The position numbers and the translations under genes were made by a program. A DNA stretch of 64,000 bases, taken from contig CAVTBU010000005.1 in the NCBI GenBank assembly GCA_963733035.1, positions 1,952,001 through 2,016,000 on the forward strand, given 5' to 3'. This document shows, piece after piece, positions 12,409-19,468 of this stretch (positions are counted from its first letter, which is position 1; each line of letters opens with the position of its first letter). This stretch comes from Pirellulales bacterium. GTDB lineage: Bacteria > Planctomycetota > Planctomycetia > Pirellulales > PALSA-1355. The notes beneath the pieces were generated by a model, which saw nothing but the letters and a program-made list of their open reading frames with translations, did no database searches and was not told the origin of the DNA.

Positions 12409-13581
12409 TTACCGACTCTGCCGCCCAGGAGTTTCCTGCTGCGGCGCGACGAGCAGTATTTGGACCCCTGCCTGGATCTTCGCGGCCGACTCAAGTCGAG
12501 GGGAAGCCACTCGCGGTAAAATGATCTGTTGTCCTGGACCCAAATTCGCGGGCCGTGGCACCTGCGACAGTATGTCGTCAACCTGAGAGCTGGTCGCGCG
12601 CAACAAATACAGCGACTGTAGTGGCGCGGTGCTCATCCTATCGGCAGCTTTGCCATTCCTATTCGTGGACTCGGACTCGACCGAAACCTGCTCACTTCCA
12701 CGGGGAGTCGTCAACTTCTCCCACGCGATATCATTTGCATCGAGCAATTTCTCGAATCGCTTACCGTTGAAATACTCCGCGCTTACTGAGCACACGATGG
12801 GCGATTGGGTGTCCGCCTTGACGACTCCGTTTGATTCGGAGAATAACGGCGTTGCCTTTTTTTGCAACGGCACCGTCTTAGAAGGCGAGGCATCTTGCAT
12901 CGAGCGCGCCTGGCCGCGCACAGTCGGATGACCGCCCATCTTCTCCGAATGCTGGAAAAGGTCCGCTGACGGTCGACTTGCGGGCTCTCGCGGGACTGAA
13001 CTTTCCGGCGCCGGTACCGCGCCTTTGGCATAATTGGCGACGGGTTCGCCGGAGGCCGGATGGTTGCCGAGATGGTCACGAGAGAATGCGTTAGGAGGGG
13101 ATTCAGACGCCGCACCGACGCTCGCCCCCGAACCATCTTCCCCACCGTTTTGCGAATCCAATTCGGTCGCCTCGGGCGGCGCCTGTGCGACATGCAGTTC
13201 GTCGGGGCGTTGGTTCGCGTCGTAAACTAGAATCACGAGAGCCGCGGCCACCGCCAACGCGGGCCAAATGAGCCGTCGCAGGTTCGATCTTCGTTCCCAC
13301 CAGTTGGCACTCTTGGGCACAATGGTACTATCACTGAAGTCGCCGGTTTTCGAACGCAAGACCGCCTGCTCCGCACGACGCAACACGGAAGTGGCCAGAT
13401 CTCGGTCGAGCTTGTGTTGGGGTAGCGTCTGCAAGCCAGCGCGCAGGGTCAAAAGATCATCTCGTAGCTGGCGCAATTCGGCACTTTCGGCCAGCCAACC
13501 TTCAACGCGGGTCCGCTCATCGACCGACAGCTCGTCGTCGAGATAGGCACTGAGCAGTTCTTCGCGTTCGATTTCAGTCAT
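12409..13581 (-). CDS. Membrane-anchored anti-sigma factor
   Basis: ELLSAYLDDELS..ER..VE.WL anti-sigma N-terminus, one TM helix (WPALAVAAALVILV), directly downstream of the ECF sigma gene. Confidence 0.85.
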   Translation of the reverse strand: MTEIEREELLSAYLDDELSVDERTRVEGWLAESAELRQLRDDLLTLRAGLQTLPQHKLDRDLATSVLRRAEQAVLRSKTGDFSDSTIVPKSANWWERRSNLRRLIWPALAVAAALVILVYDANQRPDELHVAQAPPEATELDSQNGGEDGSGASVGAASESPPNAFSRDHLGNHPASGEPVANYAKGAVPAPESSVPREPASRPSADLFQHSEKMGGHPTVRGQARSMQDASPSKTVPLQKKATPLFSESNGVVKADTQSPIVCSVSAEYFNGKRFEKLLDANDIAWEKLTTPRGSEQVSVESESTNRNGKAADRMSTAPLQSLYLLRATSSQVDDILSQVPRPANLGPGQQIILPRVASPRLESAAKIQAGVQILLVAPQQETPGRQSR

Positions 13582-13623
13582 GTTTTTTAGGGTCCGAGTT
13601 TTCGCCCCTGTCCCGGTAAAAGT

Positions 13624-14187
13624 TTACTTCACGTCTTCCTGCAACACGTCCTTGAGTTGTTCTCGCAACTGCAGCCGGGCGCGGTGCAGCCGGCTGCGGA
13701 TGGTTCCGACGGGCAGCCCCAGAACTTCCGCAATTTCTTCATACGTGCAGCCGTCTATTTCGCGGAGCACCAGAATTGCCCGATGCTCTTCGGAAATTCG
13801 CTCCAACCCGACCTGCACCTGAGAGGCTCGTTCCTGCCGCTCGATTCGATCACCAGGGCCCGCGCCACGATCGACCGGCTCGTGGCCAAGTTCGTCGCGG
13901 GCGTGGTCGACCGACACGGTCGGTTTTTCTCGCCGCCGCCGCGTGACGGCCATGTTGAATGCAATCCGGTAGAGCCACGTGTAAAAGGTGCTAGCCCGCT
14001 CGAATGTGTCGAGCTTGATGTAGGCCTGTACGAAGGCGTCTTGCACGGCGTCGTAGGCCAAATCGGGGGATCCCACCAAATGCACCAACGAGTTGTACAA
14101 TCGGTCCTGATATCGCGTGACCAATTGCCCAAACGCCGCACCATTGCCTGCCAGGGCGTCGTCAATGAGCTGGGCGTCGTCGTTCAC
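13624..14187 (-). CDS. ECF RNA polymerase sigma factor (RpoE-like)
   Basis: AFGQLVTRYQDRLY, D.VQDAF, FYTWLYRIAFN and LREIDGCTYEEIAEVLGLPVGTIRSRLHRAR; GTG start at 14187 with GGAG RBS. Confidence 0.93.
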   Translation of the reverse strand: MNDDAQLIDDALAGNGAAFGQLVTRYQDRLYNSLVHLVGSPDLAYDAVQDAFVQAYIKLDTFERASTFYTWLYRIAFNMAVTRRRREKPTVSVDHARDELGHEPVDRGAGPGDRIERQERASQVQVGLERISEEHRAILVLREIDGCTYEEIAEVLGLPVGTIRSRLHRARLQLREQLKDVLQEDVK

Positions 14188-14202
14188 AGCCGCTCCACCG
14201 GT

Positions 14203-14231
14203 TTGGACGCCAAGAAACCCACGAAAGTTCC
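14203..14231 (-). promoter_or_regulatory. ECF (sigmaE-type) promoter, probably autoregulatory
   Basis: Minus strand GGAACTT, 16 nt, GTCCAA, ending 15 nt before the sigma start codon. Confidence 0.7.
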
Positions 14232-14286
14232 CCGCGGGACGCCAGAAATCCGCCCGCGACGGCCAAAGAAGCGACCGTCCAACCCG

Positions 14287-14315
14287 ATTGTCGAGACCCT
14301 TGAAAGGCTTGTCAA
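14287..14315 (-). promoter_or_regulatory. Putative sigma70-type upstream promoter of the ECF operon
   Basis: Minus strand TTGACA, 17 nt, GACAAT. Confidence 0.45.
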
Positions 14316-14590
14316 ACATGGGGTCGACTGACGCCCAAGCTTTAGAGGGCGCGGTTTGGTCACTAGCGACGGTCGTGATTCCATCACCGACGACATCACA
14401 ATGAATACATTGAAATAATCACTTCAACAACAGGCCGCGAAGCCAAGCCGTCGTCCAAGAACCAAACACATTAGATAACCAGGGGAAATATCACCTAAAA
14501 TCAAAACCACGACACAGGGGCCCACGATTGGTCGCCGGAAGAACTGGCAGTGGACGCTTGGACGGTGCGATGTCCGTATCGAATCCGCGA

Positions 14591-15880
14591 CTACGGCGCC
14601 AGGGCGAGCCTTGGTTGCCAGGCAATGCCGGGGGGTTTCCGCCACAGCAGGTAGGCCCAGAGAATGATGCCCACTAGAAAAATGCCGATGCTGATGTTCT
14701 GAGAGATACTCATCCCCGTGCCAAACACGGCCGATTCGTCGATACGGATAATCTCGAGCAGAAACCGCGAGATCGGATGCAGCGTCAGGACCAGCGCGGT
14801 CAACTCGCCGTCGCGCCGCTTGAAGGGTTCATAGGCCAGAAGCAAGCCGCACAGCAAGAGTGCGTCAATGAGGCTGTAAAGTTGGGCCGGGTGCATCGGT
14901 AGGCTGCGAGGCGCTGGGCCGGCAATCACCCACTGTTTGGGTTGTGGATCCTCGGCGACGGCAACTTCGACCGTTTCGCCGTCTCCAAAGATGCTGAGCA
15001 GTCGGCCCTGGGCTTCCTGGACGCTCTTTACAGGCACGCCCCCGATTGCCACCACGTGCTCGCCTGGTAGCAAGCCCTGGCTCGCAGCGGGCGAACCGGC
15101 CTCGACGCTGGCAATTACCGGCGGAGCGTCTCCGCTGCCATCAAAGGTCAGCCCGTGTACGTACAGTGCGCCTCGCTCAACTTGGTCGATGAAGGCTGGG
15201 CTCTCCGGCGGGAACTGCACGGCCCAGGGAAGGTCGGTCAATCCGCCGTAGCAGCAGCCATTCATGAAGCAGCCGAGTCGCCCCAAACCGACTCCCAACA
15301 CGACCCCAGGGGCAATCAGATCCGAGAGAGCGAGGCCGGGCAGGTGATACTTGCGAACGAAAACAATCAGCGCCACGCCCCCGGCCAACAGCGACCCGTA
15401 AACCACCAGACCGCCTTGCGTCATGTTGATGATCGCCAGAAGCGTGCCGGCCAGCGTGGGCCGCTCAAATCGGTCCCAATACTCAATCACATAAAATGCC
15501 CGGGCGCCGATGATCCCCCAGATAAAGAACCAAGTGCCCAGCGACAGAATGATTTCCGGATTTACGCCAACTCGTTGAGCGCGAAAAACCGACAAACCCA
15601 CTCCCGCACTGACCGCAACTAGCAGCATGGCGCCATAACCGCGGATAGCCAACCCGCCGAGCCGCTCATCCATTAGGTGCGGCAGCACGAAATAGATTGC
15701 CAAGCCCACGACGAGCGCGGCGCCGATCTGGCTGCGTGTTTCACCACTCCAGCCGTGTCGTTTAAGCGACCAGCCCACCAATATGGCCGACACGACCACC
15801 CAAACGCCCAATAGCCAGCCAAAGCCAAAGACGTCGATTCCGGCCACTTGCCGCGGGATGACAAATAGTGTTTGACACAT
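14591..15880 (-). CDS. lgt: Prolipoprotein diacylglyceryl transferase with inserted PDZ-like domain
   Basis: IRGYGAML, GARAFYV, GGLVVYG, GRLGCFMNGCCYG, HPAQLY and RFLLEIIR motifs; insert V.AGSPAA.QGL.PGE.VVAIGG.PV is PDZ-like. Confidence 0.9.
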   Translation of the reverse strand: MCQTLFVIPRQVAGIDVFGFGWLLGVWVVVSAILVGWSLKRHGWSGETRSQIGAALVVGLAIYFVLPHLMDERLGGLAIRGYGAMLLVAVSAGVGLSVFRAQRVGVNPEIILSLGTWFFIWGIIGARAFYVIEYWDRFERPTLAGTLLAIINMTQGGLVVYGSLLAGGVALIVFVRKYHLPGLALSDLIAPGVVLGVGLGRLGCFMNGCCYGGLTDLPWAVQFPPESPAFIDQVERGALYVHGLTFDGSGDAPPVIASVEAGSPAASQGLLPGEHVVAIGGVPVKSVQEAQGRLLSIFGDGETVEVAVAEDPQPKQWVIAGPAPRSLPMHPAQLYSLIDALLLCGLLLAYEPFKRRDGELTALVLTLHPISRFLLEIIRIDESAVFGTGMSISQNISIGIFLVGIILWAYLLWRKPPGIAWQPRLALAP

Positions 15881-15937: not shown

Positions 15938-16804
15938 TCAAGAAAGCATTTCGTTATCGATCAATCGCGTCGTGCCCACGCGAGCCGCCACCAGAGCCAC
16001 GGCTGGACCTTCCACTCGATCGAGTGGCGCCAGTGTGTTTGCATCACAAATCGCGACATAGTCGATTTGCATCTCGGCCGCTTGCAAGATTTCACGCATC
16101 GTTGCAAGGATGGCATCCGACGCACGAATCCCTTCGCCCACCATCTCGGCAGCCCGCTTGAGGCTTTGCGAAAGCGATCGCGCTCGGCGGCGTTCCGCCG
16201 GTGCCAGGTAGGCATTGCGCGAACTCATCGCCACGCCGTCTGGTTCGCGGATGATTGGGCAAACCGTAATTGCAATCGGTAGGTTCAGATCAGCGACCAT
16301 CCGCCGCACGACAAGCGACTGTTGATAGTCCTTGCGTCCGAAATATGCCCGATCCGGCTGAACTATGTTGAATAGCTTGAGTACGACCGTCGCCACGCCG
16401 CGAAAATGAGTCGGCCGAAATTCTCCTTCCAACGACAAGGCCGGCCCAAGCACCTCGACGCTCGTGGCGTGCTGGGAACCATACATCACGGCCGTCTCGG
16501 GTGCGAACACGACGTCGACACCGTGCTGAGCGAGCAACCGGAGATCGGCCTCGATATTCCGTGGGTATTGCGTGTAGTCCTCACCAGGACCAAACTGCGT
16601 GGGATTCACAAAAATCGTGGCGACCACGACGTCGCACTCCTCACGACAGGCATCGACCAGACTGAGGTGTCCGGCGTGCAGCGCACCCATCGTAGGCACC
16701 ACGCCAATTGTGGCGCGTTGCTCACGTGCTGCGCGAAGGTGTTCGCGCAAGGTATCGGCTGCGTGAAATAGCTGAGGGGGAGTCGTCGTTTTTGCCGTCG
16801 TCAT
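15938..16804 (-). CDS. panC: Pantoate-beta-alanine ligase
   Basis: VPTMGALHAGH, IFVNPTQF, RPTHFRGV, FGRKDYQQ, AMSSRN and RLIDN. Confidence 0.97.
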   Translation of the reverse strand: MTTAKTTTPPQLFHAADTLREHLRAAREQRATIGVVPTMGALHAGHLSLVDACREECDVVVATIFVNPTQFGPGEDYTQYPRNIEADLRLLAQHGVDVVFAPETAVMYGSQHATSVEVLGPALSLEGEFRPTHFRGVATVVLKLFNIVQPDRAYFGRKDYQQSLVVRRMVADLNLPIAITVCPIIREPDGVAMSSRNAYLAPAERRRARSLSQSLKRAAEMVGEGIRASDAILATMREILQAAEMQIDYVAICDANTLAPLDRVEGPAVALVAARVGTTRLIDNEMLS

Positions 16805-16822: not shown

Positions 16823-17824
16823 TTACTGCATGGCGATCATTGCCGCCGCAAGCTCGGTTAATTGTGCCTCGAAGTCGAAACTCCCTGCGCAAAGCACCGG
16901 CTGCCCGCCGCGAGCCGCCAATTGCAAGAGTTCGGGGTCAAGCGAGCGACGGAATCGACCCGGCGTGTCGCCTCGTGTGCCCACCATTGCTTCCCAGGAA
17001 TCAAGCACGACCAACAGCTTTGGCTGGGCGATTTCGTGTTGTTGTCGCCACGCCTGCTCAAACCGGGTGAAAGCATCTTTTTCCATCTCGACTCGGGCCT
17101 CCGCCAGCAATCGGTCGAGATAGAAACCGCTGATCAGCGCTCGGCCCGAGCTCCAATCGTAACCCGCCAGCATGCTTGCGGCATGGTCGAGGAATTGTAT
17201 CGGTGTCGTCGGGGCACGACCAGACGGATCGGTCCGGGACGTAACATGTTTTGCCACCGCCGTTTTCGACAGACAATCGGCCCCAACGCGAGCCGCCGCA
17301 GCTGCGGCAAGCTCCTCGGCCCGGCTGTCGAGTGATCCCAAAATGGCCACATAGGGCCGCGCACGGCGCAAGTGTTCGAGCAATCGCTCGATCGACCAGC
17401 CGACCAGCGGATGCACCATCTTCGGCGCCACCTCGGTAGCAGGTTCCAGAACAAAGCGGCGAAACGCCATCCGCGGATGCGGAATCTGCAGTTGCGGCGT
17501 GCAGATCACTTGCTCGTTGTAGAGGAGCAGGTCCAGATCGATAAGCCGGGCCTCCCATTTCTCGCCCCGCTGACGACCCAAGTCTATTTCGATCTGTTGG
17601 AGCAGCGCGTGCAACGAATCGGGAGTCAAAGACGTCTCGAAACTCGCGGCCGCGTTGAGAAACGGTGCTTGTCCGGCAGGCCCGCCGACGGGCAGGGTCT
17701 CGTGAAACGTGCTGACCGAGGGGCTGCTGATCGCGGAGTTCTGCGAGAGCCGGTCGATGGCACTCGTCAGCGCTATGTGTCGCTGGCCAAGATTTGCGCC
17801 CAGGGCAATCAGCGCTCGCGGCAT
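16823..17824 (-). CDS. folK: 2-amino-4-hydroxy-6-hydroxymethyldihydropteridine diphosphokinase with C-terminal extension
   Basis: IALGANLG, FLNAA, IE..LGR.R..KW.ARLIDLDLL and IPHPRM..RRFVLEP; about 180 extra C-terminal residues. Confidence 0.92.
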   Translation of the reverse strand: MPRALIALGANLGQRHIALTSAIDRLSQNSAISSPSVSTFHETLPVGGPAGQAPFLNAAASFETSLTPDSLHALLQQIEIDLGRQRGEKWEARLIDLDLLLYNEQVICTPQLQIPHPRMAFRRFVLEPATEVAPKMVHPLVGWSIERLLEHLRRARPYVAILGSLDSRAEELAAAAAARVGADCLSKTAVAKHVTSRTDPSGRAPTTPIQFLDHAASMLAGYDWSSGRALISGFYLDRLLAEARVEMEKDAFTRFEQAWRQQHEIAQPKLLVVLDSWEAMVGTRGDTPGRFRRSLDPELLQLAARGGQPVLCAGSFDFEAQLTELAAAMIAMQ

Positions 17825-17983
17825 GGCTGTCTATGTGGGGGGGACGATGGTGAGCGACTCGGGTCCGCATCATTGTACGGTGAGGCGGGATGCCGAAGCG
17901 AACGCTCGTTTAAACGATGGACTTGCACGTGAAGCCCAACGAGAAGCGAACAGGCGGTTGCCCCTTCGCGTAGAAAAGGATGC

Positions 17984-18120
17984 AAAAACCCAGGGGGGCT
18001 TCCGTTCCGCGACCTTTCGGCCGCCGACTGTCGATCCTTGCAGTCGTCGCCCCCAAGCTACGTTGCCTATGGGTGTTTGAGGAGCGACGGGACTTGAGCT
18101 AGCACTCAAATCGACTGCGT
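17984..18120 (-). ncRNA. Candidate structured non-coding RNA or cis-regulatory leader (family not recognised)
   Basis: Nested helices on the minus strand: ACCCA/UGGGU, GGGGGC/GCCCCC, CGACUG-loop-CAGUCG, GCGGCC-GAAA-GGUCGC and UUGAG-ugcuag-CUCAA, followed by U5. No credible ORF here. Confidence 0.5.
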
Positions 18121-18616
18121 ATCGACATATCCTGCGCAACGAAAGACCCGTTTTTTTCGAGCCAGCGCCCGCCAGATTTTATATGCCGACCTGCCGGATG
18201 AGGATTCCGCAAGGTCGTCTATGGCACCGAGAACACGATGCACTAATCGATTCACAACCGTCGCTAACCATCAAACAGAGTCACATTTTGCGTTCGTGGC
18301 GAAAAATGTCAAGCAACATTCCGTTGTGTTTTTTTTGCGCGAGATTTCCTCTTGAAACTTCGCGGTGCATGCGAACTAAACAAGTCGTCGCGCTGCCCGC
18401 ATCCGTTCAGCGATGCAGTCGATTGCGCATTGAACATCAAGCCAAGAACCTTCGTGCAGTGGAAATTCTTTCGTCAGAATTGAGAATCTCTCGATAAATT
18501 CGCGACTCCCTGCATGCGGCATGGCGACGACCGGTCCGCGCGGACTTGAACCTCGCACAAAGCGTGACTTAGGATTGCATGCTGAGTAAATTCGCTTCCT
18601 CCAGAGTGGCACGATT

Positions 18617-19468
18617 GTGGACGAACTTTCCGGCGACAAGCGCGCACAACTGCATGAAGCCCTCGCTCGCGCGCATGAGTCCTCCGCCGCCGGCTTCGCC
18701 GACGCAAACGATCCGATCGCGTTACTACAGCGGTTACTGGGACCGACACTCTGCCGCCAACTCGGCGTGTTTCATTTGCCCGAGAGCTTTTTGCTCTCGG
18801 TCGTCATTCCGGTTTACAACGAACAGCGCACAATTGAGGAAGTGATTCGACGCGTGCGCAGTTGCGGCATTCCCTGCGAATTAGTGATCGTCGACGACGG
18901 CAGCACCGATGGCACACGCGCGGTTCTGACAAAGTATCAGGACGATGCCGATGTGACGGTCGTGCTGCACGAAGTCAATGAAGGCAAAGGGGCCGCACTA
19001 AAGACGGGCTTCCTGCGAGCAACGGGCGATGTAGTCGTCGTGCAAGACGCCGACCTCGAGTACGATCCGGCCGACTACACGCGGCTGCTGCAACCGATCA
19101 TCGAAGAACAGGCCGACGTGGTGTTCGGCAGCCGGTTCATCGGCGCCAGCCACCGCGTGCTCTATTTCTGGCATTCGGCAGGCAACAAGTTCCTGACCTT
19201 GCTTTCAAACATATTCACCAACCTGAATCTAACGGACATCGAAACCTGCTATAAGATGTTTCGCCGCGAGGTCATTCAACAGATCGCCCCCACGCTCCAG
19301 GAAAAGCGATTTGGTATCGAGCCGGAACTGACGGCCAAAGTGGCTCGCATCCCTGGCGTGCGAATATACGAACGTCCAATCAGCTACTCCGGACGCACCT
19401 ACGCGCAAGGCAAAAAAATCGGCTGGCGCGACGGCTTTCGAGCCTTGTGGTGCATCCTCAAGTATTAG
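18617..19468 (+). CDS. Glycosyltransferase family 2 (DPM1-like)
   Basis: [44 protein letters not shown] and FGIEPELT. Confidence 0.94.

Follow-up and report, generated by a model that had tools for sequence, protein, structure and literature searches.

The CsrA dimer has two RNA-binding pockets (PMC7652899, PMC4333381), and the sites of RsmE/CsrA have been described by an ANGGAN pattern, extra loop bases reducing the affinity of RsmE (PMC7652899). Beyond the GGA, the specificity of CsrA homologs is reported to differ (PMC13443453). Activation by BarA-UvrY/GacS-GacA has been reported, in the relevant section of PMC4682653, as specific to Gammaproteobacteria. Two other RNAs, TwoAYGGAY (RF01731) and the reverse complement of Bacillaceae-1 (RF01690), have been proposed to bind CsrA through two sites (PMC4333381). 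Among the motifs described in PMC2864571, the pan motif (RF01749) is a stem with two bulged A's, often found in tandem, and the Rhodopirellula-1 motif (Weinberg 2010), which carries no Rfam number in the table of that paper, is multi-copy and also occurs in Proteobacteria.

The locus considered here lies within a window of 64,000 nucleotides (the whole stretch of Pirellulales DNA that was analysed), between a divergent GT2 gene and folK-panC-lgt:

14591..15880, minus strand, lgt with an inserted PDZ domain (PF01790, PF17820)
15938..16804, minus strand, panC (PF02569)
16823..17824, minus strand, folK, HPPK domain (PF01288) with a C-terminal extension; the usual downstream neighbour
18617..19468, plus strand, divergent GT2 glycosyltransferase (domain match); the upstream neighbour in just 18/77 loci

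The C-terminal extension of FolK comprises about 190 residues, and that of one homolog (L077:2782-3849) scores as a deoxynucleoside kinase domain. Downstream of lgt (12409-14319, minus strand), a gene for an ECF sigma factor lies ahead of a putative anti-sigma gene, in which zf-HC2 is matched weakly.

In this intergenic region, the initial annotation had proposed an unannotated structured RNA on the minus strand. This stretch is folded more stably than its shuffled versions on the minus strand only (z-score of -2.86, compared to -0.06 for the plus strand). All the strings on which the proposal relied were located at their positions, including GGGGGC and CGACUG/CAGUCG of the window copy (minus strand) and the following ones:

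18118-18112, minus strand, GCAGUCG segment
18109-18094, minus strand, UUGAG/CUCAA 5' hairpin
18094..18118, minus strand, this 5' hairpin and GCAGUCG taken together, present in the window copy without conservation
18074-18070, minus strand, ACCCA of the outer helix
18024-18009, minus strand, GCGGCC-GAAA-GGUCGC
17988-17984, minus strand, U5

The comparison with homologues revealed that the part at 18059-17984 and the promoter are conserved, whereas the rest of the stretch is not. The 5' hairpin is found in one of 153 homologous leaders, an outer helix of the ACCCA/UGGGU type in five of them, the 7-nt pairing thought to give mutually exclusive folds in 3/140 (2.9 expected) and a GNRA tetraloop in the P3 loop of 6/127. 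Therefore, these are local features of the window copy. In contrast, the conservation of the core across Pirellulales and the covariation of its helices P1, P3 and P4, described below, bear out the proposal of a structured RNA.

A search of the window against Rfam 15 gave no match at the gathering score and, around the feature at E<=10, just two chance-level matches nearby, nothing meaningful. The tmRNA, RNase P and SRP RNAs were found elsewhere in the genome. Model searches ruled out 6S, RNase P, SRP and TwoAYGGAY identities (for RF01731, no match in the source genome at E<=10). A full-text literature search found no description of this RNA. The main text of PMC5737381, of PMC8632094 and of 2026 bioRxiv screens leaves Planctomycetes, CsrA and the folK gene unmentioned, their supplements being places where the RNA could be listed, and the sections available from PMC10729762 and PMC8567305 hold nothing specific to it. 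This RNA family is thus apparently undescribed.

At the DNA level, 21 of 61 related genomes gave matches, which fall into two blocks, the promoter region and 18070-17980. A pattern built from the second block was run on a collection of species genomes and gave at least 119 matches; among the matches listed, 98 were judged real and 21 were dropped as chance for want of the 3' half, and 15 loci were removed as duplicates ahead of counting. Titles accompany 80 of the matches listed; of these, 64 are real, and nearly all of the real ones name Pirellulales, Planctomycetaceae, Planctomycetia or Planctomycetota. Six records (L058, L064, L086, L099, L114 and L040), five labelled Kuenenia and one Chitinophagaceae, carry an RNA of Pirellulales type with folK-panC downstream; their titles may be mislabels. 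No pattern match was found in viral contigs.

The core spans about 65 nt. At E<=0.05, its covariance model has matches in 124 of the 141 Pirellulales genomes, of which 118 have a single one; the source genome has one match, at 71.2 bits. A second covariance model rescues four of the 17 negative genomes, each of them backed by folK and a promoter-like site (the weakest, G272, at E 0.12). In three model-negative genomes (G050, G051, G260), the region upstream of folK has neither the motif nor the promoter. Outside Pirellulales, no convincing member was detected in the genomes searched, with a limited sensitivity: the phylum-wide search, which matched five of 151 genomes (two Pirellulales and three weak matches), was limited because just 30 candidates were scored per genome. 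The second model matched 19 of 40 genomes from other orders or classes at E<=0.5 (best 6e-4). Of its 23 matches outside the order, seven were inspected and all seven rejected, having neither promoter nor folK and lying inside open frames of 233-915 aa, although the open-frame criterion is soft, since two true members also sit in a 271-aa frame. Two other weak matches to the second model, G303:C1:145937-146036 and 1304584-1304682 (L305, L309), are repeated palindromes with GTGGGAGG...CCTCCCAC ends, resembling REP or MITE elements. Overall, as far as sequence comparison can tell, the feature is a real small RNA gene, present as a single copy in most Pirellulales.

The alignment of the homologues points to a well-supported four-way junction, whose elements in the window are as follows:

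17984..18059, minus strand, conserved core: four-way junction P1-P4 and U-tract (covariance model, covariation, RNAalifold)
18050..18056, minus strand, 5' strand of P1, a G-run; 6/7 pairs change on both sides and 94.9% of cells are paired
17990..17996, minus strand, 3' strand of P1, a C-run (comparison across homologues)
18025..18049, minus strand, P2 arm of near-invariant sequence (C11-G35, G12-C34, R13-Y33, C14-G32, then a weaker inner part and the loop), in the register chosen by RNAalifold
18009..18024, minus strand, P3 hairpin, whose stem covaries (5/5 pairs change on both sides) and whose loop is free in length and sequence
17997..18008, minus strand, P4 hairpin, 3 bp with a hexaloop (3/3 pairs change on both sides, 87.7% paired); A.G replaces the inner pair in the window copy

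In the 99 sequences including diverged ones, 93% of cells are paired and both sides vary in 17 of the 21 pairs. This level of covariation was not attained by any of 500 shuffles, and slid controls are 45-53% paired, figures that are not probabilities, because the alignment was fitted to the structure of the first model and the relatives are not independent. G.U substitutions in P1 fix the strand of the RNA. Mutual information on 124 distinct cores ranks the P1 and P3 pairs at the top and also exposed P4 (pairs 50-61 and 51-60), which RNAalifold predicts independently: from a plain MAFFT alignment of 73 sequences, it returned the four-way junction with zero or one unpaired linker base. The multi-helix junction of the initial annotation is thus real, but it is four-way and not three-way, P1 is shifted by two bases and P4 (18008-17997) had been overlooked; the GAAA in the P3 loop of the window copy is incidental. 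A 7-bp P1 in the register first proposed was rejected on account of its fewer compensatory changes. A long-hairpin alternative (C30-G55 with 31-54, and loop-loop pairs 20-53, 22-54 and 26-53) gave an early signal, but 31-54 and the loop-loop pairs fell to 24-46% paired after the addition of diverged sequences.

P2 shows little true covariation. Its 11-35 to 14-32 register is broken in three of 100 ungapped rows, compared to eight for the CGAC/GUCG register initially proposed, which has the lower energy and is 82.6% paired in the diverged set. Given these competing registers and the near-invariant sequence, P2 is the least certain helix. When the window copy is folded by itself, other structures are favoured, including one in which the P4 GGA is buried; its minimum-energy fold is the alternative fold of the initial annotation and not the four-way junction, which is drawn from the comparison of genomes.

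Upstream of the core, the comparison of homologous loci outlined a promoter and a transcript:

18285..18316, minus strand, sigma-70-type promoter TTGC-TTGACA-N16-CAAAAT with an A-tract ahead; 130 of the 137 homologous loci with at least 600 nt upstream fit the pattern
17984..18278, minus strand, predicted transcript of about 295 nt, its ends inferred from promoter and U-tract
18060..18278, minus strand, variable 5' extension with some hairpins and no GGA excess, conserved just within the family (DNA comparison)
17984..17988, minus strand, U-tract and probable 3' end (terminator-like site at 18004-17983)

The TTGACA-N16-CAAAAT site at 18312-18285 had already been recognized and was recovered in the sequence (one site found, 0.4 expected), and it is conserved among homologues, where the consensus reads TTGACA-N16-(C/G)A(A/C/G)AAT and lies 42-630 nt upstream of the core. 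A promoter matrix scores at least 14 bits in 118 of the 137 long loci and in none of 168 reverse-complement controls, the matrix having been seeded from 71 of these sites. In the source genome, just three sites exceed 17 bits. The second-best site (G000:C5:834276, minus strand, L342) lies about 440 nt upstream of a 16S rRNA gene. In five relatives, the best scores of rRNA promoters range from -7.8 to 8.8 bits and TTGAC with a 16-nt spacer is found in three of them; as these scores are much lower, the likeness to rRNA promoters is partial.

The predicted homologous RNAs measure 83-673 nt (median about 298, n = 138). No conserved ORF was seen in the 5' extension, whose longest frames have a median of 26 aa and lengths that vary freely. 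The folding of the extension is somewhat more stable than that of shuffles (median z -1.3, with 36% of values under -2, n = 148). In the first 100 nt of the extension, two hairpins (18323-18180, minus strand) are shared by the family and show apparent compensatory changes, as in a family-specific add-on domain. A base-pairing sRNA with its seed in the 5' extension, for which the core would only be a stabilising 3' domain, might account for this folding and for the partial conservation within the family. However, the order as a whole shows no conservation of the extension, which is reduced to about 12 nt in L231, L216 and L193, where the core persists, making this explanation very improbable. 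In these three loci, the -35 box lies 42-43 nt before the core and therefore the core alone is the RNA.

At the other end, five or more U occur in the 8 nt past P1 in 95 of 160 sequences, the 65 others having no strong U-tract. A sequence-word look-up in 24 runs (17 of RNA) found none with half of the words. Each of the four RNA-library runs examined, all chosen for holding the core, gave one short contig from a freshwater relative, at a depth of 2-6.8. One contig ends at the U-tract, another about 5 nt beyond it, and the two others extend 77-80 nt further. Owing to the choice of the runs and because the contigs show neither strand, ends nor level, they indicate presence only. A stand-alone non-coding gene appears to be the best explanation of these sequence data.

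In 77 of 78 loci, and in 41 of 44 loci of a second set, the gene that follows directly in the same orientation is folK, while the upstream gene varies. In the window, folK is preceded by an element of its own:

17872..17877, minus strand, separate folK -10 element TACAAT, downstream of the RNA (sequence)

The usual position of folK directly after the RNA is what would be expected from the cis-acting attenuator or riboswitch of folK-panC-lgt put forward initially. In such a scheme, a ligand, or CsrA, would stabilise the junction so that P1 and the U-tract terminate transcription, with read-through otherwise. Furthermore, 13 of 142 RNA-folK spacers are shorter than 45 nt, too short for a separate promoter, so that folK is reached by read-through there. 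The 65 sequences devoid of a strong U-tract and the two RNA-library contigs that run past the U-tract region (by read-through or because they come from DNA) would also fit. However, a TA[CGA]AAT element, with a median position 46 nt before the folK start, is present in 68 of the 142 spacers, compared to 4.7 in shuffles and eight on the other strand. The spacers range from 12 to 737 nt and no conserved expression platform was seen in them. The switch elements initially proposed occur at the chance level given above (3/140), and the RNA was never seen next to other folate or pantothenate genes. Moreover, among 135 loci (partly redundant) whose downstream sequence is long, five have no folK, and the RNA and its promoter are kept before convergent or unrelated genes: (i) a convergent EamA-like gene that ends at the edge of the core (G263), (ii) a convergent pilM-like gene (G269), (iii) a convergent phosphoesterase gene, next to a weak match with a good promoter (G301), and (iv) an MMPL gene (G013) and a cytochrome-domain gene (G248), both unrelated to folK. 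Since folK commonly has its own -10 element and the next gene is convergent in three genomes, the RNA is likely a gene in its own right. Judging from gene order, its conservation cannot in general be explained by a cis role. The attenuator is mostly unsupported, and it is unlikely that the RNA generally functions as a folK riboswitch.

Among the unpaired bases of the core, two GGAs are the most conserved; they are a median of 32 nt apart and lie in hairpin loops of the consensus fold:

18034..18039, minus strand, GGA site 1, AAGGAU (ANGGAN) in the P2 loop; ANGGA in 101/124 distinct cores, GGA in 122
18000..18005, minus strand, GGA site 2, the ACGGAA hexaloop of P4; GGA in 119/124, C-NNGGAN-G in 84, ANGGA in 30

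The P2 GGA formed part of the first search pattern, but neither the A before it nor any of the P4 loop did. Of the 124 cores, 117 have both GGAs and 110 have one ANGGA or two; in the set used for mutual information, the bases at the N positions of ANGGAN vary freely. An ANGGA hexaloop is present in P4 of all four members rescued by the second model. In single-sequence folding, the GGAs have an unpaired probability of 0.56-0.58 compared to 0.36 for the core average (n = 119). At least two csrA genes, and up to 17, were found in each of the 141 Pirellulales genomes; as csrA is also in all 17 genomes negative by the first model, its co-occurrence with the RNA is uninformative. The source genome has 14 csrA genes (loci L263-L277), all with an R-x-E near residue 44, a motif with a role in RNA binding, and one fliW. 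One of these csrA genes lies about 240 nt after fliW (C5:1429167-1429909), and the flagellin N-domain PF00669 was not found in this assembly, which is 92% complete.

A binding of CsrA through a GGA loop had been suggested in the initial annotation. The suggestion gains from the second GGA loop, the covariation of P1, P3 and P4, the conserved promoter and the presence of csrA in every Pirellulales genome tested. The most likely reading, with about even odds on these comparisons, is that the RNA is a decoy for the CsrA family with two sites for one dimer. P2 and P4 would be opposite arms whose GGA loops fill both pockets of a single dimer, the covarying P1 and P3 arms setting the geometry. Among the numerous CsrA paralogs, one or a few would be titrated by the RNA off sites overlapping Shine-Dalgarno sequences, and translational repression would be relieved. 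The link to folK-panC-lgt would then reflect gene-order inertia, with read-through in some lineages.

Several observations weigh against a CsrA decoy. The first A of the canonical site is found in P4 in just 30 of the 124 cores and, for the diverged set, in 19 of 44, a non-canonical loop that differing specificities of CsrA homologs would allow. P4 has the C-G closure of the hexaloop in 84 of 124 cores, but P2 does not have the canonical closure: its ANGGAN precedes a C, not a closing G, and mostly lies within a loop of larger size (20-27 paired in 32%). GGA is not enriched in the 5' extension, in contrast to the multi-site CsrB/RsmZ (548 GGA in 153 extensions against 564+/-14, and no excess of ANGGA either). 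The sequence of P2 is more invariant than CsrA would need, and the window copy folded alone prefers other folds, as noted above. Finally, the genome has fliW, and FliW, not sRNAs, is proposed for Planctomycetes in the section of PMC4682653 that concerns them. More tentatively, and with a lower probability than the decoy in general, the RNA may be a minimal clamp for one dimer, whose perfect four-way junction would fix the geometry of the two GGA loops, including a non-canonical one, and thereby select particular paralogs among up to 17 CsrAs; transcription from an rRNA-like promoter would couple the Csr network to growth rate.

An invariant P2 that does not covary, in an RNA that is single-copy and order-wide, would also be expected if the GGA loops and P2 formed the site of another protein, the RNA being a housekeeping one bound to RNA polymerase, as a stand-in for 6S RNA, or to a ribosome-associated factor. 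6S RNA tends to sit before a folate gene and is defined by a long rod with a central bubble. RF00013 (6S) has no match in the source genome, and Pirellula, Rhodopirellula and Thermogutta are reported to have no 6S RNA (PMC5673643). The site of the promoter matrix that precedes 16S rRNA would fit as well. However, a branched RNA of 83 nt is unable to form the long rod, the likeness to rRNA promoters is modest in the five relatives and this reading has no candidate protein; we consider it rather unlikely, yet somewhat more probable than the attenuator.

The least probable of the explanations considered is a degenerate tRNA-like molecule or a mimic of the tRNA-like domain of tmRNA, bound by SmpB or cut by RNase P. 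The topology resembles a cloverleaf with a 7-bp closing stem, and the start of the RNA, GGGGGCGA...GGAUCGAC, resembles the 5' end of the tmRNA of the source genome, GGGGGCGA...GGGUUCGAC. However, the RNA has no T-loop, CCA end, conserved G3.U70 or tag reading frame, and neither RF00023 nor ARAGORN matches it. Besides, tmRNA keeps a U after GGA, whereas the base at this position varies freely here. A permuted tmRNA formed by pairing of GUCGCUCC with GGGGCGAC in the window was also rejected: ARAGORN is negative in the window, the true tmRNA is elsewhere and no upstream half was seen among the homologs. The tmRNA gene was located at G000:C3:1-347; it is cut by the end of the contig, a truncation that probably explains why ARAGORN gave no tmRNA genome-wide.

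Whatever its partner, the RNA gene is single-copy and nearly universal in a large environmental order, and Rfam 15 has no annotation for it. Its fold is backed by covariation, and its shortest natural version, about 80 nt long, suits biochemistry. If the RNA binds CsrA, control by RNA decoys would reach well beyond Gammaproteobacteria, and it would give a handle on why planctomycetes have so many csrA paralogs. It would also answer a question raised in a 2020 review, in which joint modulation of CsrA by FliW and sRNAs is given as undetermined in any species (PMC7652899). If it binds something else, it would be a candidate for the role vacated by the missing 6S RNA.

Compared to known systems, the RNA resembles RNAs of several classes. 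Like the pan motif, the THF riboswitch and the folE/folP motifs, it lies upstream of pantothenate or folate genes; unlike them, it has no Rfam match and can stand apart from such genes. The Rhodopirellula-1 motif is likewise a find of a screen in Planctomycetes, but its sequence differs and it folds as a hairpin according to the supplement rows that concern it. With the 6S and Ms1-type RNAs that bind RNA polymerase, the RNA shares a single copy, a strong promoter and a fixed neighbour (a folate gene), but its branched 65-nt core is not a long rod with a central bubble and RF00013 is negative. Like CsrB/CsrC and RsmX/RsmY/RsmZ, it has GGA hairpin loops off a multiway junction, ANGGAN, its own promoter, a probable intrinsic 3' end and a host with CsrA. 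In contrast to these sponges, it has two sites, no GGA-rich body, a strongly conserved scaffold and no similarity to Rfam families. Its promoter is near the sigma-70 consensus, whereas Csr/Rsm sponges need BarA-UvrY/GacA, and its host also has FliW, unlike the hosts of these sponges (Gammaproteobacteria). Like TwoAYGGAY and the reverse complement of Bacillaceae-1, as these are portrayed in their description, it has exactly two GGA loops within a basal stem, a proposed binding to one CsrA dimer and an occurrence outside Gammaproteobacteria. It differs from TwoAYGGAY by its core of about 65 nt (compared to a model of 168 positions), its four-way junction with an extra arm and a P4 that is usually not AYGGAY. 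Since it matches neither the Rsm nor the TwoAYGGAY model and does not have the many sites of the sponges, it is not filed as a member of these families. Overall, this comparison suggests that, in its mode of action, the RNA would come closest to RsmX/Y/Z or to TwoAYGGAY, the proposed two-site RNAs.
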